64,000 bases of DNA from Pseudomonadales bacterium (GTDB taxonomy: Bacteria; Pseudomonadota; Gammaproteobacteria; Pseudomonadales; Azotimanducaceae). Shown one piece after another: positions 6,205 to 63,793 of this stretch. The stretch's first letter is position 1. The number at the start of each line of letters is the position of its first letter. The stretch covers positions 153 to 64,152 of the forward strand of contig JALZVT010000167.1 in the NCBI GenBank assembly GCA_023300545.1. The letters are read 5' to 3'. The notes under the pieces were generated by a model. It had not been told where the DNA came from. It saw only the letters and a list, made by a program, of their open reading frames with translations, and did no database searches. A program made the position numbers and the translations under genes.

Positions 6205-7481
6205 CGTTCTGGCTTCTGGTGGCAATTTTGGTGGTGCTTGCCATCGGCTTTTGCCTACCATTGTGGCGGGGGGCCGCAAAGGGAGATCCGGTTGGCGCCC
6301 AAGACATTGCCCGAGCGCGGGATTCGGCAGCGTCTGCTCGTGAGGCGTACAACGCAGGCCTGTATGCCGATTATCAGCAGGAATTGGCTGAAGACCTTAG
6401 GCTCGATGAGGCGACCAAGGCCGCTTTGCTGGCAGATAAGGCGCGGCAGCTCATAGACGATACGCGGCATCTCAACCAGACAACCCCAGCGGTAAGCCGT
6501 TCGACAAGGGTCGGGAGTGAAGCGGGATGGGGCGTGAAGCTTGCGGTTCTAGGGCTCGTTATTGTGGGTTCTCTGGCGACTTATTTTGAACTTGGCACGC
6601 CAGGTGCCGAGCAGTTGGTGCAGGCTCGGGAGATTCTCAATCTGCCATCACTCGGGGAGCTCGACGGCAATGAGGGGAGTGCTGAAGCGGCTAAGCTGCG
6701 CGCGCTGACCGCCGGCTTGCGAGACCATGTGACTCGCTCTCCTGATCAGGCTGGTAGCTGGTATTTGTTAGGCATCGGTGAGTTGAAGCTGGGTTCTTAC
6801 AGCGAATCGGCCCAGGCTTTTGAGGCGGCCCACAAACTGGTGGGAGCGGATGCCAATCTTGATCTGTACTGGCTGCAGGCCCGGCTGCTGGCTGATAACG
6901 GCCAACTCTCAGAAGCGACCAAAGGCATCGCTGCGCGTGTCCTTGCTACCCAGCCAAATCAGCCGATGGTCTTGAATATGCTCGCGCTGGCGGCCTTCCG
7001 CAGTGACGATTTTTCGACAGCGGTGGGGTACCTAAATAGTGCATTGTCGAACAACATAACCGAAGGCCAGCGTCAGCTGCTGGCGTCAGGGTTCGAGCAG
7101 GCGCGCACGGCACTTGGTGTCGCGGGGCCAACGGTCGACGTTGCATTGACGCTGCCGGCAGAGCGACCCGCTGACGCGGTTGTGTTTGTTATCGCTCGGC
7201 CCGTAGGCGGCGGCATACCCTATGCTGTTGTCCGACGGCCTGTTGGCGGCGTGCCTAAGCAAGTGCGGTTGGATGATGCGGTCAGCATGAATCCGGCAAA
7301 CCCCCTGTCTGCGGCCCAGGAAGTGGAGATTGTTGTGCGCCTGTCGCTTACCGGGCGACCTCAGGCTGGGCCTGGCGACTGGCAGTGGCGCTCTGCCCCC
7401 CTTCGGCTCAAGGAGCTCAGTGGTCCTGCTCAGCTCAGTGCAGAACTTTTGCCCCCGGCGACAAAACCGCCACACAGTTGA
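6201..7481 (+). CDS. ccmI: Cytochrome c maturation TPR protein CcmI
   Basis: 426-aa ORF overlapping the ccmH stop by 4 nt. Has an N-terminal TM (FWLLVAILVVLAIGF), a second TM and a TPR-like helical region. It is last in the ccm operon. Confidence 0.75.
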   Translation: MTFWLLVAILVVLAIGFCLPLWRGAAKGDPVGAQDIARARDSAASAREAYNAGLYADYQQELAEDLRLDEATKAALLADKARQLIDDTRHLNQTTPAVSRSTRVGSEAGWGVKLAVLGLVIVGSLATYFELGTPGAEQLVQAREILNLPSLGELDGNEGSAEAAKLRALTAGLRDHVTRSPDQAGSWYLLGIGELKLGSYSESAQAFEAAHKLVGADANLDLYWLQARLLADNGQLSEATKGIAARVLATQPNQPMVLNMLALAAFRSDDFSTAVGYLNSALSNNITEGQRQLLASGFEQARTALGVAGPTVDVALTLPAERPADAVVFVIARPVGGGIPYAVVRRPVGGVPKQVRLDDAVSMNPANPLSAAQEVEIVVRLSLTGRPQAGPGDWQWRSAPLRLKELSGPAQLSAELLPPATKPPHS

Positions 7482-7660
7482 TTCGAACGACGCTGCGGGC
7501 GTGGGGCGGGAGGGGCGGCGGGGACTTTCCCAGCCCTGCGAATCTTGGCGTAAAACTCCAATAGAGGTTTCGGGTCAAAAACATGCAAAATTACGAAACA
7601 TTTTACACAGCCGCGTGTCTGAGTTTTTGGAAACAAAACTAACTACTAGGAGCAGCACGC

Positions 7661-8458
7661 GTGGCTCAAATTGAATTTGCTTCAGAATCTGTGCAACCAG
7701 CGTCGTCAATCAGAGCTCAGTCTGACGCCTTAAGCAGTAACCACACCATTAATCCAGATAGGCTCACTGGCGGCTCGCAGCCAGCGGGTGCCAGTCAGGT
7801 GGCTGGTGCAGATGGCGAACAGCCCATCAGTACCGTAGAGCGCATCGCGCGCAATCTGGCGGATCGCATCATCTTTGGCCAGTTAAAGCCAAGCGAACGC
7901 ATCCAGGAACTGAAGATCGCTGGCGAACTTAAGGTGTCGCGAGGTTCGGTGCGGGAGGCGTTACTGGTGCTCGAGGGGCGCCATATGGTGAGTATTCTGC
8001 CGCGCCGGGGTGCGCTGGTTCGGCCGCTAAACAACAATGAGATCGCGAGCATTTCGCAAGTGATTGCGCAGGTTACGGGCACTCTGTTCGCAGAGTTTTC
8101 AGCACGTCGACCGACAGGTAACTCGCTGGCGGCGCTGGGGCATGCCTTAACACTGATCAACGAGGCCGTAGAGGCAGGAGACTTGCCTGCTCTTGTGCAG
8201 GCGAGACAAGCTTTCTTCGAGCAGCCCGCCGAGTCAATCGACAACGATTTTACCGGTAATCTGTTGCGTGGACTGTCTGGCTCTGCCCGACGCCTTATGG
8301 TGCAGGCTAGCCGCAACCCCGACTTCGATGCGGCTGACACCAAACGTTGCGCCCAGGCCTTGTACGATGCAACCGCTGACCACGACGGTGAGCGCGTGCG
8401 GCAGGTTATGTCAGCCATGCTCCGTCGCGATGCGACGCTTGCGAGTACTGCGAGCTAG
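7661..8458 (+). CDS. GntR/FadR-family transcriptional regulator
   Basis: Winged-HTH segment RIARNLADRIIFGQLKPSERIQELKIAGELKVSRGSVREALLVLEGRHMVSILPRRGALV followed by a helical FCD-like C-terminal domain. GTG start has AGGAG about 8 nt upstream. The N-terminal ~55 aa look disordered, so the start is uncertain. Confidence 0.75.
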   Translation: MAQIEFASESVQPASSIRAQSDALSSNHTINPDRLTGGSQPAGASQVAGADGEQPISTVERIARNLADRIIFGQLKPSERIQELKIAGELKVSRGSVREALLVLEGRHMVSILPRRGALVRPLNNNEIASISQVIAQVTGTLFAEFSARRPTGNSLAALGHALTLINEAVEAGDLPALVQARQAFFEQPAESIDNDFTGNLLRGLSGSARRLMVQASRNPDFDAADTKRCAQALYDATADHDGERVRQVMSAMLRRDATLASTAS

Positions 8459-48320: not shown

Positions 48321-51300
48321 ATGTTAGGGCCCGAACAGGTTTGGCTCGATTTAATGGATGCAAACAGACGCCAGCATCTCCGGCAACCCATCTCACTAAG
48401 TGCGCTTGTGCATCCGCCACAGGGGCGCTCATGGTTGTGCACCATTCGCGACTTCTGCCAGAGCGGAATGCTGTTGACCGGTGCTGGTGGCAGCTCATCT
48501 TTGATGGCGACCGGTGGAAATTTTGATTCCGGCGCAGAAATCAGCCTGCATTTTTCGGTAGCTACTCCCAAGGGACAATTGCATTTCCGCCTGCCGTGCG
48601 TGGTCGCCCGTGTTCTCGATAATGGCGCGGGTATGGGGATTCGTTACCCTCAGGGCCTGCCGAGCGACGCGTTCGATGCGTTGCTGGAATACGCGGTCGC
48701 CTCTGGTACGGTTTCACGCCGAGAGTTTAGCGGTGATGCTGAAAGTACCAACGCTGTTGAGGGTCAGGTACCAGACGTGTTGCTGCGCGATCATCGTGTT
48801 AGTGAGCAAGACGCCGATCGTATCAAGCGCCGCCTACGCCGGGTGATGGAGCGCGCTGTCGAACGCATTAGTCGTAATTTCTACGATTCGGCGTCGAAAA
48901 ACTTGCTGTCAAAAGCTCGCGATGCTGGCACCAATGCCATGCAGATGATGTTTTTCGAAGGTCTTGATCAGTTGGAAAAAGGTGAGGCTCAGGTCAAAAG
49001 CAGTTTTGCTGAGTTGGTGCTGAAGCAGATTGATCAGGTCAGCGAATTTGAGTCGGTGTTGGAAAAACGTCGTCGTCGAGAAACTGGCAATACACAAAAG
49101 CTTGAGCTGGTCGATACCGAAGAGTTTGAAGAGTGGTTGGTGGTGGCGGAAGTCATATCCAAGGCTGAGGGCCGTTTTAGCGACACACTTGTCGACCTGC
49201 GCACGATGCTCGAATTGCTCGCCAAACCTTGGGGGCACAAAGATGTTGTACCCATTGGGCCGGCAGTTTTAACCTGGGCATTTGCAGATGCCATCGAAAC
49301 GCTAGAGTTTCGTCGTAACGTAAAATCAGAAGTATTCACCGAGTTTCAGAACACGCTGATTCCGGTGCTCGAAAGTTTGTATTCCGCGCTTACGACAATG
49401 CTGGATGAAACCGGTGTGTTTCCCAGTGTGGAAGAGCTGCGCACCGCGCAACTCCGTTCAACGCAACCCGCTAAACCTCGGGCTGCAGCCGAGCCGCCGC
49501 CAGTTCAAGATCCTGAGAACTATCAGGAGATGGACAGCGCTGTGCGTGAAGCGGCTATGGCGGTTGACGGTGTGTCGTCGCCGCGAGTGATGGCTGGGCA
49601 TGACCCTTTTGCGCCGTCGGTTCGAGGTGGCACTGCTGAAGTCTACAAGGCTGCCCGTGAGCTGCTGTCTCTCGGGCGTCAAACTCGCGAGCGTATGGGG
49701 CAGACTGTTGATGACCCGATTGCGCCGGACGATGCGCCTGATGCTGCTAAGTTCGCCAGCGACGACATTATGGAGGCATTCCAGCAGATTCAAAGCGAGC
49801 TGGGTGATACGACCTTAGACGACCAGCGGCTCAAGCCTCGCTTGATCGAAGTGCTGCGTCAGCGCCACGGCGACGCGAAAGGTTTTGGCGCTGCAGAGTA
49901 CGACACCATCAATGTGATGGAAAATCTGGTCGACTCTATGCAAGAGGATCAGCTGGTTACCGAGGGTGTTCGGGACTGGATTAAGCGACTAGAAATTACG
50001 CTGAACAAGGTTGCGGCGACTGACGAAAAATTCCTTGAGCACACCGCTGAAGAGCCACACTCTGCTGCGATGATGCTGAACCTGCTTGCGCGTTTGGGTA
50101 ACACCAATGACGCCAGTCAAGGTATTGATCGTGAAGTAGGACGGCGGGTAGATGCCGTACTTGAAAAGGTTGTTAACGACTACGACGAAAATCCAGAAAT
50201 TATTCAGGAAGCGGTAGATGAGCTCAATCCGCTCATCGATCGCCAAACTAAGGCGTATCGCGGCAATGTCGAACGAACGGTTCGAGCCAGTGAAGGGCAA
50301 CAAAAGCTGGCGCGTGCGCGACGCGCTGTTGTTGACGAAGTGGGCGACCGCATCGCCGACCAGGAAGTGCCGGACCTACTGGTAGAAATGCTCAACCCCG
50401 GTTGGCGCAACCTGATGGTTCACACCTATCTGCGCAACGGCATCGACAGCCCCGAATGGCGTGATGCGTTAACGGTTGTCGATCAGGTGAAACAGCACCT
50501 TACAGGTGAGACTTCGCCCGGAGACGAAGACTATGTGGAGCCCGAAGACATTCTGAAGCGGGTGGTAGGCGGCTTGAACGACATCTCGTTCGACCCTGCG
50601 AAACGCACACCACTGGTTATGAAATTGTCGTCTGCCATGGTGGGCGATACCGCCGGCGAAAAAATTGCAACGCAGCCGGTGCACACCGCTAAGGACGAGC
50701 TGATAGACGTGCTCGGCCTTGATGGCCTGTTGCCCGATACCGACCCGGGTATTGAGACCGAGGATGAGGACCTGCGCAGCAGTTGGTCTACTGCTCTCGA
50801 GCGTGCTCGGAGAATTCAGGTTGGCGAGTGGCTGGCAATCAGTGACGAGGATGGTCGGCCGCTTATTCTGACCGTTGCGTTTGTTGGTGATCAATACACG
50901 TTGTTTGTTCTGGTTAATCGCAAAGGTGTGAAAACCAAAGAGCTAAGCCTCAAACAGCTGACAGACGGTTTGCACCGTGGCGACATGACCCTGCTTGATG
51001 ATTACGACATGCCTCTCATGGAGCGTGCGTCCCAGCGTATGCTGCAGAATATGCATAATCAGCTCGCCTATCAGGCATCCCACGATGAGCTAACGTCGCT
51101 GCTTAATCGTAAAGAATTCGAACGTGGCATCGACAAGGCGATTAGCAAGGCCAAGGCAGATCACAGCGAAAGTGCGTTATTTCACCTCGATCTTGATCAA
51201 TTCAAAATTATTAACAATACCAGCGGTCATGCTGCTGGAGATGCGTTGCTGAAGCATCTGGGTGTGATGCTCAGTAGCTTTGCTGAGCCATATGATGGTC

Positions 51301-52352
51301 GCGTAGCGCGGCTAGGTGGTGACGAGTTTGGTCTGCACTTTGAAGGTATGTCGGCCGAAGACGTACGTCGTGTGGGTGGCGAACTGCTCGACACCATGCG
51401 CGAAGAGCGATTCCACTGGGAAGAGCGCGTTCACAGCCTATCAGCAAGCCTTGGGTTGGTGTTCGTCGACGAGTCGAGCGATGTGCAAGAGGTGTTAGTT
51501 TACGCGGAAGAGGCCTGCTACACGGCTAAAGAGTCCGGCCGTAATCGGATGCAGGAATTTGAACTTGGCGACAAGAAAATGATGCGTCGCCAAGGCGTTA
51601 TGGAGTGGGTGGGAGAGCTTGATCGGGCGCTTGATGAAGAGCGCCTGGTGCTTAATTGTCAGCGTATCGTGCCGATTAATCAGCATTCCCAGGTGCAGCC
51701 ACACTACGAGATTTTGCTGACGATGAGAGACGAGGAGGGCAATATGATGCCTCCCGCGGAGTTTATTCTCGCAGCCGAAACCTACAATCGCATGGTGCAA
51801 GTGGATCGTTGGGTGATTACCAACGTGTTCAAGTGGATTTCCGAACATCGCGATGAGCTCGACAATATATCCGGCTTTGCGATTAATATTTCTGGGCACT
51901 CGATGAACGACGAGGCGTTCGCAGACTTTGTGCTTGAGCAGTTCAGCAGCACTCAAACGCCAACGTCAAAAGTTTGCTTCGAGGTTACAGAGACGGCTGC
52001 AATATCAAACCTTGATAACGCGATTGATTTCATGAACCGAATGAAAATTATCGGTTGTCGGTTTTCGCTGGATGACTTTGGTACGGGTCTGTCGTCCTAT
52101 TCTTACCTGCGTAACCTGCCGGTCGATTACGTGAAGATCGACGGCGTCTTTGTCCGTGATTTGGTGGATAGCCCTGGAGACTACGCGGTAGTGCGCTCTA
52201 TCAATGAAATTGGCCATTACATGGGCAAGAAGACGATCGCTGAGTTTGTTGAGAACGACGAAATTCTCGCTCAACTTAAGGAGATCGGCGTCGACTATGC
52301 GCAGGGCTACGGCATACACAAGCCTTCACCGCTGAGCGAGCTAGTTCTCTAG
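48321..52352 (+). CDS. Multidomain c-di-GMP protein: PilZ-like N-terminus, DUF1631-like central region, GGDEF and EAL domains
   Basis: RRQHLR (RxxxR) and DFCQSG (DxSxxG with S to C) lie about 23 aa apart. The central ~700 aa are helical with segments I recall from DUF1631 (LLSKARDAGTNAMQMMFFEGL). GGDEF at 51315-51329. The EAL domain has EIL, NIS, EVTE, DDFGTG, KIDG, EFVE and QGY. Confidence 0.85.
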   Translation: MLGPEQVWLDLMDANRRQHLRQPISLSALVHPPQGRSWLCTIRDFCQSGMLLTGAGGSSSLMATGGNFDSGAEISLHFSVATPKGQLHFRLPCVVARVLDNGAGMGIRYPQGLPSDAFDALLEYAVASGTVSRREFSGDAESTNAVEGQVPDVLLRDHRVSEQDADRIKRRLRRVMERAVERISRNFYDSASKNLLSKARDAGTNAMQMMFFEGLDQLEKGEAQVKSSFAELVLKQIDQVSEFESVLEKRRRRETGNTQKLELVDTEEFEEWLVVAEVISKAEGRFSDTLVDLRTMLELLAKPWGHKDVVPIGPAVLTWAFADAIETLEFRRNVKSEVFTEFQNTLIPVLESLYSALTTMLDETGVFPSVEELRTAQLRSTQPAKPRAAAEPPPVQDPENYQEMDSAVREAAMAVDGVSSPRVMAGHDPFAPSVRGGTAEVYKAARELLSLGRQTRERMGQTVDDPIAPDDAPDAAKFASDDIMEAFQQIQSELGDTTLDDQRLKPRLIEVLRQRHGDAKGFGAAEYDTINVMENLVDSMQEDQLVTEGVRDWIKRLEITLNKVAATDEKFLEHTAEEPHSAAMMLNLLARLGNTNDASQGIDREVGRRVDAVLEKVVNDYDENPEIIQEAVDELNPLIDRQTKAYRGNVERTVRASEGQQKLARARRAVVDEVGDRIADQEVPDLLVEMLNPGWRNLMVHTYLRNGIDSPEWRDALTVVDQVKQHLTGETSPGDEDYVEPEDILKRVVGGLNDISFDPAKRTPLVMKLSSAMVGDTAGEKIATQPVHTAKDELIDVLGLDGLLPDTDPGIETEDEDLRSSWSTALERARRIQVGEWLAISDEDGRPLILTVAFVGDQYTLFVLVNRKGVKTKELSLKQLTDGLHRGDMTLLDDYDMPLMERASQRMLQNMHNQLAYQASHDELTSLLNRKEFERGIDKAISKAKADHSESALFHLDLDQFKIINNTSGHAAGDALLKHLGVMLSSFAEPYDGRVARLGGDEFGLHFEGMSAEDVRRVGGELLDTMREERFHWEERVHSLSASLGLVFVDESSDVQEVLVYAEEACYTAKESGRNRMQEFELGDKKMMRRQGVMEWVGELDRALDEERLVLNCQRIVPINQHSQVQPHYEILLTMRDEEGNMMPPAEFILAAETYNRMVQVDRWVITNVFKWISEHRDELDNISGFAINISGHSMNDEAFADFVLEQFSSTQTPTSKVCFEVTETAAISNLDNAIDFMNRMKIIGCRFSLDDFGTGLSSYSYLRNLPVDYVKIDGVFVRDLVDSPGDYAVVRSINEIGHYMGKKTIAEFVENDEILAQLKEIGVDYAQGYGIHKPSPLSELVL

Positions 52353-57190: not shown

Positions 57191-57772
57191 ATGAGTAACT
57201 ATCAGGTGCTTTTTAATGGGGTGGTCGCCGAGGGTGATGACGCCAGTAGTGTCGAGCGCGAGCTAGCAGGCGTTTTGGGCATTGATGCCAGCAAGGCGAA
57301 GCGCCTCTTTAACGGTCGCACCGTCGTACTGGCAAGCCAGCTCAGTCGCGATGAAGCGATGGATATGCAGGCTCGGCTAGAAAAGGTCGGTGCAATCTCG
57401 CGCATCAAAGACTTGACCCCCAAAACCCAGCAACCCCTCGACTACGAGTCTGATCGTAACGATGGCACGCTCCGTGATCTGACCGCTGCCCATATCGATT
57501 GTCCGCGTTGTGGCCATATGCAACTCGACTCTACCCATTGCGCCCGTTGTGGTGTTGATCTTGAGGCCTTGTTTCGCAAGCGTCGGAAAGACGAACTGTT
57601 GATGGAGAAAAAACTGCGCGATCACCGCGCGGCGCAGCAAAAGCAAGCTGAACAGGCTGCTAGTGCCGGTGTTGATGCTGGCAATGATGTTGTGGACAGC
57701 GGCCCCCGCGGGCCTGTTCAGGCAAAAGCCAAAAGTGGCTTCTTCTCCCGTCTGTTTGGTCGGTCAGCCTGA
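57191..57772 (+). CDS. Hypothetical protein with zinc-ribbon and C-terminal amphipathic tail
   Basis: 193 aa. N-terminal ~75-aa domain, CPRC...CARC zinc-ribbon (57500-57550), charged helical region and C-terminal KSGFFSRLFGRSA. Confidence 0.6.
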   Translation: MSNYQVLFNGVVAEGDDASSVERELAGVLGIDASKAKRLFNGRTVVLASQLSRDEAMDMQARLEKVGAISRIKDLTPKTQQPLDYESDRNDGTLRDLTAAHIDCPRCGHMQLDSTHCARCGVDLEALFRKRRKDELLMEKKLRDHRAAQQKQAEQAASAGVDAGNDVVDSGPRGPVQAKAKSGFFSRLFGRSA

Positions 57773-57785
57773 CGCGTCTTTTCTG

Positions 57786-57813
57786 TGCAATCGCTGTTTC
57801 ACTAGCGATTGCA
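57786..57813 (+). other. 10-bp perfect stem-loop after the hypothetical gene
   Basis: TGCAATCGCT-gtttcact-AGCGATTGCA begins 14 nt after the stop at 57772. There is no U-tract, so this is a terminator-like or stabilising hairpin. Confidence 0.5.
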
Positions 57814-57883
57814 CCTTGTCAGCGTTCACCGTGCTGCGACAATGGCAGAACCGCTTAGCGTTGATAGTTAAGGCCGTAATCTA

Positions 57884-58723
57884 ATGTCATCTCACTCCCA
57901 GCTCGCCACTGCCGCGGCTTCTGCGCCCATTGGTGTGTTCGACTCCGGCATGGGCGGGCTTACCGTGTTGCGCGCACTAGAACGCGCGATGCCGCAACAG
58001 TCGTTTGTTTATCTGGGAGACACTGCTCGACTTCCCTACGGCACCAAAAGTGCGCTCACTGTGCAGCGTTATGCGCTGCGTGCTTCACGTGAGCTTGTTG
58101 AGCGTGGGGTGAGTGCGCTGGTGGTTGCATGTAACACCGCTTCAGCGGTGGCGCTTGATGCGTTGCGCGCTGAATACTCGGACCTACCTGTTTTTGGTGT
58201 TGTTGAGCCAGGCGCCGCCGCGGCGTGTGCGGTGCCAAACACCAAACGTATTGCCGTCTTTGCGACCGAGAGTACGGTGCGTGGTGGTGCCTATCAGCGA
58301 GCTCTACTGGCCCACAATTCTAGACTGGCTGTACGCGCGCGTCCTTGTCAGTTGCTGGTAGCACTGGCGGAAGAGGGCTGGCTGAATGGTGACGTGCCAG
58401 ATGCTGTGCTTAACGGATATTTGCGGAGTTGGTTGCGCTGGCAACCGGACGTACTGTTGTTGGGTTGCACACATTTCCCTGTGTTTCGTGCGCAGTTGCA
58501 GAGACTTGCAGGTGCGCAGGTAACCATTGTCGATTCTGCGGAAACCACAGCCACAGAAGTGGCGAGTGCGTTGTCGCCGCTGCCTGAAATAATTCAACCA
58601 GAGGCGCGCGCGATTTTGACAACGCGTACCTTACTAGCGACAGATGACGTGGCTCGTTTTCGACGCGTCGGCCAGCACTTTCTTGGCGAGGCATTGGGGG
58701 ATGTTGAGTTAGTCGACATTTGA
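57884..58723 (+). CDS. murI: Glutamate racemase
   Basis: 279 aa with FDSGMGGLTV and the catalytic Cys motifs VVACNTAS and LGCTHFP. Confidence 0.93.
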   Translation: MSSHSQLATAAASAPIGVFDSGMGGLTVLRALERAMPQQSFVYLGDTARLPYGTKSALTVQRYALRASRELVERGVSALVVACNTASAVALDALRAEYSDLPVFGVVEPGAAAACAVPNTKRIAVFATESTVRGGAYQRALLAHNSRLAVRARPCQLLVALAEEGWLNGDVPDAVLNGYLRSWLRWQPDVLLLGCTHFPVFRAQLQRLAGAQVTIVDSAETTATEVASALSPLPEIIQPEARAILTTRTLLATDDVARFRRVGQHFLGEALGDVELVDI

Positions 58724-58855
58724 TTTGTCGCCGCACTCCCTTCTACCTAACGTTCATTGATAAGATACCCGCGACGCAAAGGTATTCTCCTTTAGCGTCA
58801 TCAGCCTGATCCGATGCGGTCCTAGTTTTATAATGACATTTCAGTACCTAGTTCG

Positions 58856-60625
58856 ATGAGTTCACCCAGTTCCACTCGTAACGTTGCGCATGTGATGAAA
58901 TACATGCGCACCATTTTGGGGCCCGAGCGGAGTTTTATGTGGCTCGCTATGGTCTATGGTGTTGGCATTAGTTTGCTGAGCCTCGCAACTCCCGTGTCTG
59001 TTCAGATGCTCATTAATACTGTTGCGAACACTGGTTTGACGGCGCCCTTGGTGGTTTTAGCCGTCAGTCTGTTCGTGCTGCTGTTGCTCGCCGGATTGCT
59101 GAATGCTCTGCGTATTCATCTTATGGACGTTTATAGCCGAAGATTCTATGCGCGCATGTTGTCTGAGGTTGCGTTGCGTTCAGTATTTGCGCTCAACCCG
59201 TATTTTGATGATCAGCAGAAAGGCCCACTGTTCAATCGCTACTTCGACATCATCATTGTTTTGAAATCGCTCCCGAACCTGCTTGTTGGGGGCTTCACGA
59301 TTGTGATTCAGGCGCTGGTCGGATTTGTATTGGTGTCGTTCTACCACCCGCTATTTCTCATTTTCAACATCGTCACCATTGGTTTGGTGTGGCTGGTGTG
59401 GCTGATCTGGGGGAAAAGAGCCATCGCCAGCGCGGTCGATCTGTCTCATCAAAAACACGCTGTCGCCGCGTGGCTTGAAGATTTGGGCGCGTCCAATGGC
59501 TTCTTTAAATCAGAGCGCCATATTGCCCAGGCGCTGGATCATACGGATTCGATGACAGCCGACTATATTAAGTCGCACAAGAAGCACTTTAGAGACCACT
59601 TCAGTCAGACGCTGGTGTTTGTGCTTATTTATGCGGGTGCCAGCGCGACGTTGCTCGGGCTAGGTGGCTGGCTGGTCATCCAGGGCGAGCTTTCGCTCGG
59701 GCAGTTGGTCGCGGCTGAGCTGGTGTTGTCGGTGGTTTACTACAGTATTTCCCAGCTTGGAACCTACTTCACTTATTACTACGATCTGTGTGGCGCTGTG
59801 GATGAGCTCGCCATGTTCTATGAAGTGCCACAAGAGACCGCATCTGGCGAACATCAACCTTCCCAAGATGATGCGAGGCTTGCCTTTGTTAATGCTAAAG
59901 GCGAGGCGCGCAGTAATGTGGCTACGCTGAACCTTGAGATTCCGAGCGGCGCACGGGTGATGGCGCACACTGCCGAGCACAGCATGCAACGCATGATTAC
60001 CAATCTACTCAAACACCACAGTTTGCCCAACGCGGGTTATGTGGCCCTTGGTGGTATCGATATCCTGGGGTTGGAAGCACACACCCTTCGACAGGTGATC
60101 ATGGTTCTGGATAGGCCTAACGCGATCGAAATGACGATTCGCGATTTTCTCGAACTCTCAGCGGTTGAGCGACAGCCAGAACGAATTCTTGAGGTGATTG
60201 AAACTGTCGGTCTTGGCCCGACAGTGGCGCAGTTGGAGCTAGGGCTCGACACGCTCATCGCCATGACCGGCTGGCCGCTCGACATCACCGAGACTATGAA
60301 GCTGAAACTTGCCTCTGCAATCATCGCTCAGCCCCGGGTGCTAGTTCTGAACGAGTTGTTTGACATGATGACCGAGCAGCAGTTGTTGCGTTCACTGGAT
60401 GTGCTGCAGCAACGATGCGCGTGCACCGTGATCTATTTCTCCAATCGTAACGCGCAGCTAAATTTTGATTCCTATCTGTATTTGCGACCGGAGCAGCAGA
60501 AGTTGTACCCCACCTTTGGCGAAATGCTTGCGGCAGAAGGTGCCGAAGCTCTTGGAATGGAAGCTCTTGATTTAACGAGCGGCAAACCTGACGGACTGCC
60601 AGATGGTGCTGGAGTAAGTCGCTGA
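58856..60625 (+). CDS. ABC exporter-like protein: type-1 exporter transmembrane domain plus degenerate (pseudo-)nucleotide-binding domain
   Basis: 589 aa, similar in size and layout to PrtD/AprD-type T1SS ABC proteins (no C39 domain). The N-terminal ~310 aa are polytopic. The C-terminal ~240 aa align by eye to the HlyB NBD, but Walker A, Q-loop, signature, Walker B Asp and H-loop are all substituted. Confidence 0.75.
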   Translation: MSSPSSTRNVAHVMKYMRTILGPERSFMWLAMVYGVGISLLSLATPVSVQMLINTVANTGLTAPLVVLAVSLFVLLLLAGLLNALRIHLMDVYSRRFYARMLSEVALRSVFALNPYFDDQQKGPLFNRYFDIIIVLKSLPNLLVGGFTIVIQALVGFVLVSFYHPLFLIFNIVTIGLVWLVWLIWGKRAIASAVDLSHQKHAVAAWLEDLGASNGFFKSERHIAQALDHTDSMTADYIKSHKKHFRDHFSQTLVFVLIYAGASATLLGLGGWLVIQGELSLGQLVAAELVLSVVYYSISQLGTYFTYYYDLCGAVDELAMFYEVPQETASGEHQPSQDDARLAFVNAKGEARSNVATLNLEIPSGARVMAHTAEHSMQRMITNLLKHHSLPNAGYVALGGIDILGLEAHTLRQVIMVLDRPNAIEMTIRDFLELSAVERQPERILEVIETVGLGPTVAQLELGLDTLIAMTGWPLDITETMKLKLASAIIAQPRVLVLNELFDMMTEQQLLRSLDVLQQRCACTVIYFSNRNAQLNFDSYLYLRPEQQKLYPTFGEMLAAEGAEALGMEALDLTSGKPDGLPDGAGVSR

Positions 60626-61647
60626 TGGCTGATACTGAAAAGCATATGCACCGCTTTGAAACGTTGCATTCTATTCGTATGCCGCGCGTGATGCGGGTGG
60701 TGGGTTGGTTGTTGTCGAGCGGTGCTGTGTTGTTGGTGTTGTTTTTGACATTTGTACCTTGGGTGCAAACAACCTCAGGCGCCGGTGTAGTGATTGCGCT
60801 TGATCCTAACGATCGAGTGCAGCAGATAAACGCGCTGGTCTCCGGTCGCATTCAAGAGTGGTTTGTGCGGGACGGTACCCATGTTGCTAAAGGCGATCCG
60901 ATTGTTCAGATTGTCGACAACGACCCGCAGTTGATTGAGCGTTTGCAAGATGAGCGTGCCCAGTTCCTAAATAAGCGCCTGTCTGTTGAACAGGCTAAGG
61001 CGACGGCTGAGATTGACCGAGAACGCATGCGGGGATTATTTGAGAAGGGGTTAGTCGCACGGCGAGAATATGAGCTAGCACGCATCAAGGTGGATGGTTT
61101 GCGTGGCGATGTGGCTGAGGCGGCTGCGGCCTTGAATCGAATCGAAGTATCACTATCAAGACAGTCGGTGCAGATTATTCGGGCACCCAGAGATGGTGTC
61201 ATATTGCGTGTAAATAGCAGCAACGCTGCCACAGTTATTAGTACGGGTGATGCGTTGGCGACCTTTGTGCCTGACAACGCCGAGCGGGCCGTTGAAATAG
61301 AAATTGATGGCCGAGATGTTGCGTTGGTCACCCAAGGTGCCACAGCTAGGCTGCAGTTTGAAGGTTGGCCGGCCGTACAGTTTAGCGGCTGGCCATCCGT
61401 TTCCTTTGGTACCTTTGGGGCCAAGGTATTGGCTATTGACCCATCCGCCAATCGGGCAGGACGCTTTCGCGTGTTGCTGGGTGTGGATGCTGCTGATCCG
61501 ATCGCCTGGCCCAACAAGCGCTTTGTACGCTATGGCGCCAAGGTGCGCGGTTGGATTCAACTGGACACCGTGCCGGCAGGGTATGAGGTTTGGCGGCAGC
61601 TGAACAACTTCCCGCCCAATCTGGTCGAAGCCCCGGTGGGCATCTGA
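60625..61647 (+). CDS. HlyD-family periplasmic adaptor (membrane fusion protein), short coiled-coil type
   Basis: 340 aa. N-terminal TM (VVGWLLSSGAVLLVLFLTF), lipoyl-like half (INALVSGRIQEWFVRDGTHVAKGDPIVQI), alpha-hairpin of about 70 aa, then IRAPRDGVIL and a beta-barrel region. The start overlaps the ABC stop (TGATG). Confidence 0.85.
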   Translation: MADTEKHMHRFETLHSIRMPRVMRVVGWLLSSGAVLLVLFLTFVPWVQTTSGAGVVIALDPNDRVQQINALVSGRIQEWFVRDGTHVAKGDPIVQIVDNDPQLIERLQDERAQFLNKRLSVEQAKATAEIDRERMRGLFEKGLVARREYELARIKVDGLRGDVAEAAAALNRIEVSLSRQSVQIIRAPRDGVILRVNSSNAATVISTGDALATFVPDNAERAVEIEIDGRDVALVTQGATARLQFEGWPAVQFSGWPSVSFGTFGAKVLAIDPSANRAGRFRVLLGVDAADPIAWPNKRFVRYGAKVRGWIQLDTVPAGYEVWRQLNNFPPNLVEAPVGI

Positions 61648-61651
61648 CATC

Positions 61652-63094
61652 GTGTTTATGACCCGACGTCTGTTGTTTGTGTCGCTAGTTGCGACAGCAC
61701 TTCTCTGCAATGCCCCTAGTGTGGCTGCTCGTGACGCAGATTTGACGGCAAACGAAGTGCTGCAATCATCACTACAGCATTTCCCGCAAATTTTGCAAAA
61801 GCTGGCCCAGCGCCGGTTGGTAGCCGGTCAAGCGCTGAGCGCCGAAGGTGCCTTTGATCTGGTGTTTTCTGCAGATGGTTACTCCCGTGCAAGTGGGTTT
61901 TGGGATGGCAGAGCGTTGTCTGGAACTGCCCAGCAAGATCTGGGTCGTGGTGGCGTTAGCCTGTATGGCCAATACCGGCTGTCCGGGGGTAGCTTTCCAA
62001 TTTATGAAGACGAGTACTTCACCAATGCTGGCGGCGAATTCAAGGTGGGTGTTCTGTTCTCACTGTTACGCGACCGCTCTATCGACCAGCAACGCTTTGC
62101 ACGGCGTGATGCCGCACTTGCCGTTCGCGCGGCAGATGTGCAGGTGTTGCTGACCAAGTTGGGTGTGCAGCGACAGGCGCTTATTGCTTACTGGCGTTGG
62201 GTAACAGTAGGTAGCCAGATCAGTGTTTATGAAGACCTGTTGCGCAACGCACGCGAAAGAGAATCTGGGTTGATTGAGCAGGTACGTAGCGGCGCTCAGG
62301 CAGAGATATCGTTGACCGAAAATCGGCAGAATATTACCCGCCGCCAGGCGCTTGTTACGGCCTCCAGGCGCGAATTTGAACAGGCGGCGAATAGCCTGAG
62401 TTTCTACCTTCGCGGAGCTGATGGTGCGCCAATGCGCCCGACGGCTGCTCGATTGCCAGGTACGGCTACTGCCTTTGAAACTATTGCCGTGAACGCTATT
62501 AAATTCCCTGCAGTAGACCTTGCTCGTGCGAACCGTCCGGAGCTTCAGTTGCTCGATAATGCGATTGAGCGAACGCTGCAGCGTATTGCGCTCGACGAAA
62601 ATGCGCTAAAGCCAAAGCTGAACCTGGACGTTGGTTTTGCCAGAGACGTTGGTGGTATCGCTGAGGGTGGTCGTAGCCGTGAGGGTACAGACACTGTATT
62701 CGGGCTGGAGTTTTCGGTGCCGCTGCAACGCCGGGCTGCGAAGGGTAAGTTGCAACAAAGCAAAGCCAAGCTAGAGGTGCACCGACAAGAACAGCGGCAA
62801 CTGCAAGACGAAATCGAAATAGAGCTGCGGAACATTGTTTTGGAGCTAAACGCTGCACGCGAGCTGGCTGATTTGGCGCGATTGGAAGTAGGGCAGGCGC
62901 AAACGCTGCGCGATGCGGAACAAACGCGGTTTGAGCGTGGAGCTAGTGATTTCTTTCTGGTTAACCTGCGCGAGCAGGCTGCGGCTGATGCTCAGCGACG
63001 CCTTCTTTATGCGTTGCTTGAAGCACGGATTGCACGAACAAACTATGACGCGGCAGTGGTTGATCTTGGTCGCTTGGGGTTGGGTAAGCCTTGA
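61652..63094 (+). CDS. TolC-family outer-membrane channel protein
   Basis: About 480 aa with a signal peptide (LLFVSLVATALLCNAPSVAARD) and two-fold repeated helical/beta structure typical of outer-membrane efflux proteins. Start is GTG 61652 or ATG 61658, 4-10 nt after the adaptor stop. Confidence 0.82.
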   Translation: MFMTRRLLFVSLVATALLCNAPSVAARDADLTANEVLQSSLQHFPQILQKLAQRRLVAGQALSAEGAFDLVFSADGYSRASGFWDGRALSGTAQQDLGRGGVSLYGQYRLSGGSFPIYEDEYFTNAGGEFKVGVLFSLLRDRSIDQQRFARRDAALAVRAADVQVLLTKLGVQRQALIAYWRWVTVGSQISVYEDLLRNARERESGLIEQVRSGAQAEISLTENRQNITRRQALVTASRREFEQAANSLSFYLRGADGAPMRPTAARLPGTATAFETIAVNAIKFPAVDLARANRPELQLLDNAIERTLQRIALDENALKPKLNLDVGFARDVGGIAEGGRSREGTDTVFGLEFSVPLQRRAAKGKLQQSKAKLEVHRQEQRQLQDEIEIELRNIVLELNAARELADLARLEVGQAQTLRDAEQTRFERGASDFFLVNLREQAAADAQRRLLYALLEARIARTNYDAAVVDLGRLGLGKP

Positions 63095-63154
63095 GTCTCG
63101 CTGGCTTTAAGCGGGTCTGAAGGTTAGGTCTCGACACAACGATTCAAGCCGAGT

Positions 63155-63793
63155 TTATTCAATTTCTGTTTTCTGCTTGTATTCGCATAAGTCTTCGATG
63201 ATGCAGCTTCCGCAGCGCGGGGTTCTTGCCACGCACACGTAGCGACCGTGCAAAATTAGCCAGTGATGCGCGTCGCGTAGGAACTCCTTGGGTGTTAGTC
63301 GAATCAATTTGTCTTCGACTTGGCGCACTGTCTTTCCCGGTGCTAAACCTATGCGGTTGCTCAACCGATAGATGTGCGTGTCAACCGCCATAGTGGGTTC
63401 GCCAAATGCGGTATTCAGCACGACGTTGGCGGTTTTTCGACCGACGCCGGGTAAGGCCTCTAAAGCCTCGCGGTTGTTGGGCACAACACTATCGTGTTCT
63501 GAGATCAAAGCCTTACAGGTTTTGAGCACATTGGCAGCTTTGGTGTTGTACAGACCAATGGTTTTGATGTGGTTCTTGAGGCCTTTTAAACCCAATTTCA
63601 GAATGGCTTCGGGGGTGTTGGCTTCTTTGTATAGCGTGGCTGTTGCCTTGTTGACACTCACATCGGTGGCCTGAGCAGACAGAATGACTGATATGAGCAG
63701 CTCGAACACGCTGTCGTATTCTAACTCGGTGGTTGGGTTCGGATTGGCTGCCTGCAGGCGAGCGAAGATCTGTACGCGTTTATCTTTATTCAT
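63155..63793 (-). CDS. nth: Endonuclease III
   Basis: 212 aa. HhH-GPD motif LPGVGRKTANVVLN and the 4Fe-4S cysteine cluster CVARTPRCGSCIIEDLC. Confidence 0.95.
   Translation of the reverse strand: MNKDKRVQIFARLQAANPNPTTELEYDSVFELLISVILSAQATDVSVNKATATLYKEANTPEAILKLGLKGLKNHIKTIGLYNTKAANVLKTCKALISEHDSVVPNNREALEALPGVGRKTANVVLNTAFGEPTMAVDTHIYRLSNRIGLAPGKTVRQVEDKLIRLTPKEFLRDAHHWLILHGRYVCVARTPRCGSCIIEDLCEYKQKTEIE

Follow-up and report, generated by a model that had tools for sequence, protein, structure and literature searches.

A putative pseudo-ATPase homologue of ABC exporters, encoded in a three-gene envelope module of marine Proteobacteria

ABC transporters are defined by the ATP-driven dimerisation of their nucleotide-binding domains (NBDs), and we know of no degenerate ATP site among them that is not paired with one working site. 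Can the membrane domain of a type IV exporter be driven in another way? The question is raised by an exporter homologue encoded near one end of a 64,000-nucleotide stretch of DNA from a Pseudomonadales bacterium (hereafter the window, meaning the whole stretch that was analysed), in which a first-pass annotation, made from the letters alone, had read every motif for ATP binding and hydrolysis as substituted. A large family with the whole architecture intact, from membrane domain, coupling helices, and folded NBD to adaptor and outer-membrane duct, and with no site that works would amount to a natural experiment on what the NBD scaffold does beyond catalysis. The features of the locus are collected in Table 1.

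Table 1. Features of the three-gene locus, in positions of the window
Feature	Position	Strand	Basis or remark
Putative pseudo-ATPase ABC-exporter homologue, 589 aa	58856..60625	+	ORF list, translation, HMMER, AF2, Foldseek
Transmembrane domain (TMD), ~residues 20-325, six long helices, type IV ABC-exporter fold	58913..59830	+	PF00664, model helices
NBD-like domain without ATP motifs, ~residues 340-560	59873..60535	+	hhalign, pLDDT, dN/dS
Walker A remnant TAEHSMQRM, residues 372-380	59969..59995	+	H375, Q378, R379 conserved in family
Q-loop remnant VLDRPN, residues 417-422, without Gln; R420 in 80/81	60104..60121	+	
X-loop end and signature remnant GWPLDITETMK, residues 472-482	60269..60301	+	E479 in 80/81
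Walker B remnant and shortened D-loop PRVLVLNELFD, residues 493-503	60332..60364	+	
H-loop remnant TVIYFSNRN, residues 524-532	60425..60451	+	
HlyD-type periplasmic adaptor (MFP), 340 aa, N-terminal membrane anchor, short alpha-hairpin	60625..61647	+	Pfam HlyD_3, HlyD_D23, Biotin_lipoyl_2
TolC-like outer-membrane factor (OMF), 480 aa, signal peptide	61652..63094	+	PF02321 OEP, 97.8 bits, two stretches
Upstream intergenic region	58724..58855	+	TATAAT at 58829-58834, 21 nt before ATG

The open reading frame is uninterrupted, with endpoints exactly at 58856 and 60625, and its stop overlaps the start of the adaptor gene (TGATG), in keeping with the tight operon that had been described. In HMMER, the solved HlyB structure 7sgr aligns over the full length of the protein (E 7e-18), beginning at HlyB residue 156; no Peptidase_C39 match was obtained with Pfam and the chain begins ~20 residues before TM1, i.e., an N-terminal C39 or C39-like domain is absent. 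The AF2 model of the 589-aa protein (pLDDT 76.9) retrieved PCAT1, HlyB, TmrAB, and TM287/288 as top Foldseek matches, and also Sav1866 (TM 0.72-0.76), with alignments to full-length exporters spanning 560-580 columns. The membrane half is a type IV ABC-exporter TMD, with six long transmembrane helices (model residues 10-59, 62-112, 125-161, 165-212, 220-275, and 281-322) and intracellular coupling helices, and PF00664 (ABC_membrane; 33.3 bits, above the cutoff of 28) is the sole Pfam match in the ORF. PF00005 (ABC_tran) gave no match at E<0.1, and it was also absent among >100 close homologues, for which the precomputed Pfam assignment is PF00664 alone. An NBD fold, i.e., a RecA-like core and a helical subdomain, is nevertheless present: the family profile aligned with the MsbA NBD at 98.3% probability in hhalign, and pLDDT was ~75-90 across residues 340-560.

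Because the reading of motifs depends on the register, the NBD-like domain was aligned in four independent ways, namely HMMER with solved HlyB, ABCB4, and ABCB1, MAFFT with E. coli MsbA, hhalign of the family profile with MsbA, and Foldseek on the AF2 model; all four returned the register that had been proposed by eye. Column statistics were drawn from 81 colinear, full-length orthologues (53-81% identity) from independent genomes and metagenome-assembled genomes (MAGs). In the Walker A motif, MsbA GRSGSGKST is replaced by TAEHSMQRM, the Lys becoming Q378 and the Ser becoming R379, and these columns hold Gln and Arg, respectively, each in 80 of the 81 proteins. The signature LSGGQ becomes LDITE (residues 475-479, nt 60278-60292), as annotated, and reads L[ST]xxE without Gly-Gly across the family. 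Walker B ILILDE becomes VLVLNE, with the Asp replaced by N499; this column is Asn, Ser, Gly, or Thr in every orthologue and Asp in none, while the following Glu (E500) is retained here in a column that is Gln in 60/81 and Glu in 10/81. The H-loop His is N530 and is found in 0/81 proteins. To these substitutions, which had all been called at first pass, we add the loss of the A-loop aromatic (MsbA Y351 to A351, a column that is Ala in 58/81).

Two earlier calls stood only in part. The Q-loop Gln is absent, as claimed, and its supposed replacement by Asp was not borne out: D419 pairs with the preceding Ser, and the Gln column itself holds R420 (MAFFT) or a gap (HMMER, hhalign). Likewise, the spacing and D-loop region had been described as kept; D503 is indeed invariant, but the stretch from Walker B to this D-loop Asp is 3 residues shorter in 81/81 proteins. 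A regular-expression scan for G....GK[ST] or SGGQ located no intact motif elsewhere in any of the 81 proteins; hence, the register is not hiding one, and intact motifs in an alternative register were ruled out. Judged from sequence, the residues canonical for ATP binding and hydrolysis are all lost, and the protein would be expected to fail to bind ATP.

Is this simply a dying gene? Beyond the loss of the motifs, nothing points to a decaying pseudogene or a sequencing or frameshift artefact, and much speaks against either: besides the uninterrupted frame and the colinear orthologues, which share the substitutions, homologues fall into >120 protein clusters at 58-89% identity, and dN/dS over 30 close pairs was 0.03-0.17 in the NBD-like domain, on a par with the 0.01-0.09 of the TMD. 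Values so far below 1 in the degenerate domain exclude a dying gene, in agreement with the first-pass annotation, whose proposed computational checks all turned out favourable to it, and we give decay or artefact a practically negligible chance. Matches were found in at least 471 species genomes of marine Gamma- and Alphaproteobacteria, and MAGs labelled Pelagibacterales or Rickettsiales carry the module too, as does a 1.52-Mb contig. Within the NBD-like domain, conservation peaks at the former motif positions, with a mean top-residue frequency of 0.76 vs 0.53 (Mann-Whitney p 7e-10) and 36% of positions at least 90% conserved vs 11% in the rest of the domain, which suggests that the site was remodelled and not abandoned. 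The family, present in abundant marine lineages, including the MAGs labelled Pelagibacterales, and under strong purifying selection, offers a directly testable system. Public sources mostly name its members "ABC transporter ATP-binding protein", a label that we regard as a systematic annotation error.

The gene forms, with its two downstream neighbours, a three-component set of the type I secretion kind (T1SS), in which ABC-like, MFP, and OMF genes are consecutive on one strand. Across the 81 loci, the adaptor lies directly downstream in all and the outer-membrane factor is on the same strand in 76. The adaptor has HlyD (8dck_C) as its best PDB match and scored 67 bits against TIGR01843 (HlyD-family T1SS), below the cutoff of 208.65. 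Upstream of the ABC-like gene, no obvious Shine-Dalgarno sequence was seen in the intergenic region, a promoter scan by consensus gave no full -35/-10 pair there, and no consensus promoter or terminator pattern exceeded shuffled expectation. Rfam matched nothing over 57700-63300, and none of the small ORFs listed upstream was a plausible leader peptide or otherwise credible.

All-vs-all clustering of ORFs in the 20-kb neighbourhoods of the 81 loci revealed no conserved neighbour besides MFP and OMF, and no cognate RTX or GG-leader substrate gene was found among the conserved neighbours or the upstream ORFs. The substrate, which is not encoded in cis, is probably a small molecule or a housekeeping product and not an adjacent RTX protein or leader peptide. 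The surroundings of the module consist of housekeeping and envelope genes, and in distant degenerate members the three genes are laid out likewise, again among housekeeping genes. An OxyR-like LysR regulator was considered as a conserved neighbour and rejected, being present ~170-440 bp upstream in only ~8/81 loci, plus L083; it is a weak lead.

These neighbourhoods also bear on whether a partner supplies the ATPase activity, in an obligate heterodimer with a canonical half-transporter encoded elsewhere in the genome. Heterodimeric exporters normally have their two half-transporter genes adjacent. Here, each of the 81 loci holds exactly one ABC-like gene, and a search of all ORFs of at least 80 aa for Walker A and signature patterns found no canonical NBD in the window and, within 10 kb, only two among the 81 loci, both unrelated and of ~273 aa, i.e., too short to include a membrane domain and hence not half-transporters. 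A nearby partner ABC gene is thereby ruled out for the 81 loci and the window, and the picture is the same in distant members. Moreover, because the Walker A, Walker B, and H-loop side and the signature side are both lost, even pairing with a canonical partner would, given the composite-site architecture of ABC dimers, leave no fully canonical ATP site, both composite sites being presumably defective. Asymmetric exporters with one dead site are common (PMC7756269) and our examination was confined to 20-kb neighbourhoods, which together keep a distant partner conceivable; we nonetheless consider it very improbable.

Beside the family stands a sister group of unnamed ABC proteins of 700-770 aa (e.g., P0178, P0184, and P0197) that keeps Walker A as GxxGxGK[ST] and scores on PF00005. 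It shares with the degenerate family the TMD signature of the clade (YHP163-165 and GQLVAAE282-288), the 3-residue D-loop deletion, and the ABC-MFP-OMF operon, as in the Walker-A-positive P0178 locus, which reads ABC(744)-MFP(446)-OMF(477). Unlike the family, it carries an N-terminal extension of its own (~180 aa), and its adaptor, 36% identical to ours, is 446 aa long as against 340 aa, with all 94 gap positions of the alignment falling within the hairpin, which is ~94 residues longer in the sister system. The sister group itself lacks the Gln of the Q-loop and the Gly-Gly of the signature, and often also the His of the H-loop; scattered members have lost Walker A independently. In a neighbour-joining tree built on TMD columns only, all short Walker-A-less representatives formed one block, i.e., a monophyletic clade next to the Walker-A-positive sister group, whose operon is laid out in the same way. 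Some Pelagibacterales-like members keep partial remnants (of 114, 33 have the Walker A Lys, 22 the Walker B Asp, and 40 the H-loop His), which suggests that ATP use may not be lost everywhere and is perhaps retained in parts of the clade. No curated family model of NCBIfam or Pfam reaches its cutoff on either the degenerate family or its sister group.

Comparison with the sister group also helps to weigh whether the module transports anything at all. The ABC-fold protein could be a mere anchor for adaptor and outer-membrane channel, in a static scaffold, tether, or sensor that spans the envelope; the complete loss of catalytic motifs, an adaptor hairpin ~94 residues shorter than that of the sister system, the lack of a substrate gene in cis, and the setting among housekeeping and envelope genes would all suit such a role. 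Against it, the TMD is the most conserved part of the protein, with 49% of positions at least 90% conserved, including the translocation pathway and the coupling helices, and is essentially unchanged relative to the Walker-A-positive sister group. This is constraint beyond the needs of a mere anchor, and we regard a non-transport role as quite improbable.

If the module does export, what occupies the former ATP site? Five conserved basic residues (R352, H375, R379, K386, and R420) could still hold a nucleotide, or another anion, without a P-loop. In 80/81 family proteins the Ser/Thr position of Walker A is basic and the Gln position of the signature is acidic, a combination also seen in 96/115 of the Pelagibacterales/Rickettsiales-like subclade vs 0/52 Walker-A-positive relatives. 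Of 80 diverse representatives of the wider degenerate clade, only 19 have this charge pair; the replacement residues differ across that clade, with no single new site universal to it. One way to read the pocket is as a ligand-gated variant, in which it binds nucleotide in a non-canonical manner, or another anionic ligand (a second messenger, a phosphate compound, or a thiol, for instance), and this binding, in place of ATP hydrolysis, switches the exporter. The strongest conservation of the domain does lie exactly at the former ATP site, with new polar or charged residues (R352, H375, Q378, R379, R420, E479, and D503), and the sister group, with its Walker A but with neither Q-loop Gln nor signature Gly-Gly and often no H-loop His, points to an ancestor in which ATP was bound more than hydrolysed. 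In addition, degenerate sites of known ABC exporters hold ATP as a structural or regulatory ligand (PMC7756269). Set against this, neither the glycine-rich P-loop nor the Lys nor the aromatic that stacks on adenine is left, the replacement residues are not conserved over the wider degenerate clade, and no ligand-related gene is among the conserved neighbours of the 81 loci. We hold ligand gating to be unlikely, though likelier than the other rival readings.

The reading that we favour, and to which we give somewhat better than an even chance, is that the protein is the inner-membrane pseudo-ATPase subunit of a three-gene, envelope-spanning exporter derived from type I secretion, with a remodelled, ATP-independent interface. 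A type-I-secretion-like ABC system would be its ancestor, and the loss of every canonical ATP residue suggests the term pseudo-ATPase. The ABC-like protein would act as a homodimer in which the former ATP-site and dimer-interface surface has been rebuilt into an ATP-independent contact, a candidate for which is R379 (Walker A Ser/Thr position) paired with E479 (signature Gln position), with D503 nearby, and this surface would still be coupled to the TMD via the conserved coupling helices. Such an interface implies that transport would not be driven by the canonical ATP cycle; what is supposedly an ATP-powered pump probably works another way, and the drive could be the proton-motive force (PMF), a substrate gradient, or gating by another input. 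For the first of these, the sequences hold no positive sign of proton coupling: no TMD residues hinting at it are specific to the degenerate clade, and the conserved polar residues, including E288, are common to the sister group. There is precedent in SbmA, in which a membrane domain of the ABC-exporter type is run by the proton gradient (PMC13316013). More tentatively, and at rather less than even chances, this family could represent a widespread, ancient clade of full-length exporter homologues that work as ATP-free homodimers in TolC-linked tripartite systems, in which NBDs serve as interface or switch and PMF or another non-ATP source drives export across both membranes. If so, nature would have turned a primary-active machine of the type-I-secretion kind into a secondary-active or gated conduit, with the NBD scaffold left in place.

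In our full-text searches of the literature, no tripartite system came up in which the ABC exporter has both of its sites degenerate; none is described in a 2020 review of degenerate sites, nor in the sections available to us of a 2021 review in Chem Rev that covers tripartite systems and T1SS. Of known systems, type I secretion and bacteriocin exporters (HlyB, LssB, PrtD, PCAT1, and ComA) provide the best matches in both sequence and structure, with LssB, bacteriocin_ABC, and HlyB as best NCBIfam models and HlyB, ComA, and PCAT1 as best PDB entries. These exporters share the type IV fold and the ABC-MFP-OMF layout, and HlyB also GQL(V/I)A in TM6; they differ in that here the ATP motifs are lost, there is no C39 or C39-like domain, and no RTX or double-glycine substrate gene lies nearby; the adaptor is also shorter (340 aa with a short hairpin, vs 478 aa in HlyD). 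Scores are correspondingly low, at 89.6 bits vs a cutoff of 693 for the type I secretion/bacteriocin-type family and 59-90 bits vs cutoffs of 510-726 for the curated T1SS models TIGR01846, TIGR03375, and TIGR01842.

Heterodimeric exporters (TM287/288, TmrAB, and BmrCD; CFTR, TAP, and ABCC1) resemble our protein in having a non-consensus Walker B, H-loop, or signature, and their degenerate site serves structure or regulation (PMC7756269). Theirs is, however, one degenerate site that still binds ATP and keeps the Walker A Lys, whereas here the product of a single gene is degenerate on either side of the composite site, so that no canonical one can form; the two adjacent half-transporter genes with one consensus site that characterise such exporters were not seen at any of the 81 loci. 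SbmA/BacA (SLiPT family) pairs an ABC-exporter-type membrane domain with ATP-free, proton-energised transport (PMC13316013), but SbmA is an importer from another sequence family that lacks an NBD and works without adaptor or outer-membrane partners, and our protein has an NBD-like domain and no Pfam match to the SbmA_BacA or ABC_membrane_2 profiles. Finally, MacAB-TolC and other ABC-type tripartite pumps offer the same arrangement, in which an ABC protein of the inner membrane is joined by a short-hairpin adaptor and a duct of the TolC type, also with no protein substrate encoded in cis, while MacB itself differs in its type VII fold and fully active NBD.

The only Pfam domain detected in the window protein was the ABC-exporter membrane domain PF00664 (33.3 bits), with no match to PF00005 even at E<0.1, and among NCBIfam models the protein aligned over its full length only with exporters of type I secretion and of bacteriocins, all at weak scores (LssB 89.6, bacteriocin_ABC 88.7, and HlyB 84.7 bits; cutoffs 520-730). 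HMMER against PDB sequences aligned the entire protein to HlyB (7sgr, E 7e-18), ComA, and ABCB1/B4, and the same register was obtained from MAFFT with E. coli MsbA and, at 98.3% probability, from an hhalign comparison between MsbA and the family profile. All three alignments reproduce the register proposed in the first-pass annotation, and with it the claim that every ATP motif is substituted, to which we add loss of the A-loop aromatic residue. Two details of that annotation needed correction: the Q-loop Gln is indeed lost, while the Asp proposed in its place aligns one position earlier; and the motif spacing, described as kept, is three residues shorter from Walker B to the D-loop. Intact motifs in another register were also sought, and no G....GK[ST] or SGGQ occurs elsewhere in the window protein or in 81 relatives.

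Features of the gene module and its surroundings, and ATP-motif positions of the window protein aligned with E. coli MsbA
Feature	Position in window (nt) or protein (aa)	Strand	Length	MsbA	Window protein or remark
ABC-exporter homologue	nt 58856-60625	+	589 aa		uninterrupted ORF
HlyD-type adaptor	nt 60625-61647	+	340 aa		N-terminal membrane anchor; directly 3' of ABC-like gene
TolC-like protein	nt 61652-63094	+	480 aa		signal peptide; starts four bases past adaptor gene
ORF between argG and murI	nt 57191-57772	+	193 aa		
PilZ + DUF1631 + GGDEF + EAL protein	nt 48321-52352	+	1343 aa		
A-loop	aa 351			Y351	A351
Walker A	aa 372-380			GRSGSGKST	TAEHSMQRM
Q-loop	aa 420			Gln	absent (R420 or gap)
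Signature	aa 475-479			LSGGQ	LDITE
Walker B	aa 495-500			ILILDE	VLVLNE
D-loop	aa 503 (Asp)			ATSALD	LFD; 3 residues deleted, D503 retained
H-loop	aa 530			His	N530

Modelling with AF2 from 30 aligned sequences (mean pLDDT 76.9) yielded six long TM helices and, at the C-terminus, an alpha/beta domain that is predicted well. Foldseek matched the model to PCAT1, HlyB, TmrAB, TM287/288, and Sav1866 in the PDB over 560-580 aligned columns. TM-scores reached 0.72-0.76 with structures in nucleotide-bound, outward or occluded states and 0.55-0.63 with inward-facing ones, which may be a weak hint of the conformation that the protein prefers.

In ABC dimers, each ATP site combines Walker A, Walker B, Q-loop, and H-loop of one chain with the signature of the other. 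The window chain has lost both halves, so that, given this established architecture, a consensus site is expected neither in a homodimer nor in a heterodimer with a normal partner; the alignments establish that the protein should be unable to form a canonical ATP site, in support of the first-pass interpretation. In known degenerate ABC sites, the Walker A Lys is kept and ATP binding persists (PMC7756269).

The protein database holds >120 clusters with 58-89% identity to the window protein, essentially all annotated with PF00664 only, and when one genome per species was scanned, relatives turned up in at least 471 genomes, the best 80 of which are Halieaceae, Woeseiaceae, Wenzhouxiangella, Pseudohongiella, Congregibacter, Lentisalinibacter, Erythrobacter, Parvularculaceae, Hyphomonas, and Kordiimonas. 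Across the family of 81 full-length orthologues, the replacements themselves are conserved: the Walker A Lys column is Gln, its Ser/Thr column Arg, the Q-loop column Arg, and the signature Gln column Glu, each in 80/81 proteins, and the third Gly of Walker A is His in 75/81. The Walker B Asp and H-loop His are absent from all 81, and the D-loop Asp is invariant (81/81). In 30 close pairs, the NBD-like domain had a dN/dS (Nei-Gojobori) of 0.03-0.17, against 0.01-0.09 in the membrane domain, which places the degenerate motifs in a domain under purifying selection. An uninterrupted ORF, substitutions common to the family, and low dN/dS uphold the earlier argument against a decaying pseudogene; a pseudogene or sequencing error is refuted, with a residual probability close to nil. 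Old-motif positions are more conserved than the rest of the NBD-like domain (mean top-residue frequency 0.76 vs 0.53; 36% vs 11% of positions at least 90% conserved, p 7e-10), which argues that constraint persists on the former ATP-site and dimer-interface surface, a surface remodelled rather than abandoned. That such a surface forms part of a non-canonical ligand site, by which the NBD-like domain works as a switch, is possible and in our judgment rather unlikely.

Neighbourhoods were compared by clustering all ORFs from the 81 loci with flanks of up to 10 kb per side. The adaptor lies directly downstream in 81/81 loci and the outer-membrane factor in 76/81, and in the window the stop codon of the ABC-like gene overlaps the adaptor start (TGATG). 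Antisense shadow ORFs aside, these loci had no further conserved neighbours. The ABC-like gene is shown to be functional and part of a fixed, envelope-spanning three-gene module. A canonical ABC partner encoded at a distance would be needed to supply ATPase activity by heterodimerization; each locus has exactly one ABC-like gene, canonical NBD ORFs occur within 10 kb at only 2/81 loci (both ~273 aa, too short for a membrane domain), none occurs in the 64-kb window, and we consider such a partner very improbable.

Upstream genes differ between loci; in the window, argG, the 193-aa protein, and murI lie upstream and nth downstream. The 193-aa ORF has only sub-threshold matches (zinc-ribbon, L7/L12 C-terminal-like, and HTH). 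Neither an Rfam match nor a credible small ORF lies in the 132-nt region upstream of the ABC-like gene; it carries a perfect TATAAT 21 nt before the ATG (the two spanning window 58829-58858), with no matching -35 by consensus scan and no recognisable Shine-Dalgarno in between, and the mRNA leader may be very short. About 8/81 loci (L013, L018, L019, L030, L032, L033, L038, and L042), as well as a distant member's locus (L083, regulator at 6922-7854), have an OxyR-like LysR-type regulator ~170-440 bp upstream of the module, several copies being divergent; OxyR was the best NCBIfam model for the three scanned (L083, L004, and L011; 185-234 bits, cutoff 329), a weak hint of a link to redox stress. 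Elsewhere in the window, the 1343-aa protein is a large one of c-di-GMP signalling that carries a PilZ receptor domain of its own at the N-terminus.

When 1.84 billion representative proteins were searched with a profile, 1357 matched below 1e-30, and over the best 150 the score declines smoothly from 858 to 330 bits. Roughly the first 60 representatives lack Walker A and span 535-590 aa; from ~370 bits a sister group of 700-770 aa appears (e.g., P0178, P0184, and P0197), which has an N-terminal extension of ~180 residues (no Pfam match), keeps Walker A intact, and is detected by PF00005. The sister group has the same 3-residue D-loop deletion and a signature cut to LSxxQ (Gly-Gly gone); the Q-loop Gln is missing, and often the H-loop His as well. 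Neither group reaches the cutoff of any NCBIfam model. Both have a common membrane-domain signature (P46, Q50, R100, R128, YHP163-165, K200, Q251, GG270-271, and GQLVAAE282-288), and in a neighbour-joining tree of membrane-domain columns only, all short, Walker-A-less proteins fall into a single block next to the long group. Walker A was lost independently in scattered members of the latter (P0187, P0210, P0216, P0230, P0251, P0253, and P0265), and ATP-site erosion looks recurrent across the whole clade.

The module layout recurs in the Walker-A-positive P0178, as ABC(744)-MFP(446)-OMF(477) (locus L082, 8001-13002), and in four distant degenerate members amid housekeeping genes, as ABC-like-MFP(336-358)-OMF(461-536). 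The window adaptor is 36% identical to the sister adaptor (L082 10232-11569), with 94 gap positions, all within the alpha-helical hairpin of the shorter window adaptor, so that the periplasmic span of the complex may differ. Three losses therefore mark the lineage of the window protein: that of the N-terminal domain, that of the ATP motifs, and, in the adaptor, that of ~94 hairpin residues.

An AT-rich subclade (e.g., P0167, P0294, P0300, P0302, and P0345; loci L085 and L086), from MAGs labelled Rickettsiales, Pelagibacterales, or Alphaproteobacteria and with one member on a 1.52-Mb contig, has the same three-gene module adjoining housekeeping genes (hisD, bamD-like, lptA/lptB, dapD, and hem genes). 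Remnants persist there: most members inspected keep the A-loop Tyr, and of 114 members 33 have the Walker A Lys, 22 the Walker B Asp, and 40 the H-loop His; Walker A motifs are partial (e.g., 'TGGFSTKK') and never complete. Motif loss is thus a matter of degree within the clade and has gone furthest in the window's family.

We favour, at somewhat better than even confidence, a homodimeric pseudo-ATPase whose NBD-like domains would touch through a remodelled, ATP-independent interface and remain coupled to the membrane domain via the coupling helices. These helices, NPFF (ICL1) and SNGFFK (ICL2), are nearly invariant; a static scaffold role for the complex seems quite unlikely. We hypothesize an interface contact in which the basic residue that replaces the Walker A Ser/Thr would meet the acidic one in place of the signature Gln, a charge pair present in 80/81 family proteins and 96/115 of the Pelagibacterales-like subclade, in 0/52 Walker-A-positive relatives, and in only 19/80 diverse representatives. 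The membrane domain has no change specific to the degenerate clade, and the sequence has no pointer to an energy source. A proton gradient is plausible by analogy with SbmA, whose ABC-type membrane domain is proton-driven and lacks an NBD altogether (PMC13316013); for this putative homodimer, a gated conduit or one driven by the substrate gradient is just as plausible.

These proteins form a large, conserved clade of T1SS-derived tripartite systems with a predicted pseudo-ATPase as the ABC component. No description of such a family was found in the literature searched, including two major reviews, and reports elsewhere are possible; a single-gene, strongly selected, fully motif-less exporter would surprise an ABC specialist. 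Where relatives are named publicly (P0013, P0048, P0054, P0094, P0119, and others), two labels prevail, 'ABC transporter ATP-binding protein' and 'bacteriocin/lantibiotic exporter with double-glycine peptidase domain', and both misfit because the proteins lack ATP motifs and a peptidase domain. HlyB/LssB/PCAT-type type I secretion exporters are the closest families, alike in fold and operon layout; the window system differs from them in having no ATPase motifs, N-terminal C39-type domain, long-hairpin adaptor, or nearby substrate gene, and the window protein, far below the cutoffs of curated T1SS models, should not be classed as a T1SS ABC ATPase. Heterodimeric exporters have only one degenerate site, whereas here none survives intact; the window protein also differs from SbmA, because the NBD scaffold, the adaptor, and the outer-membrane partners are retained.
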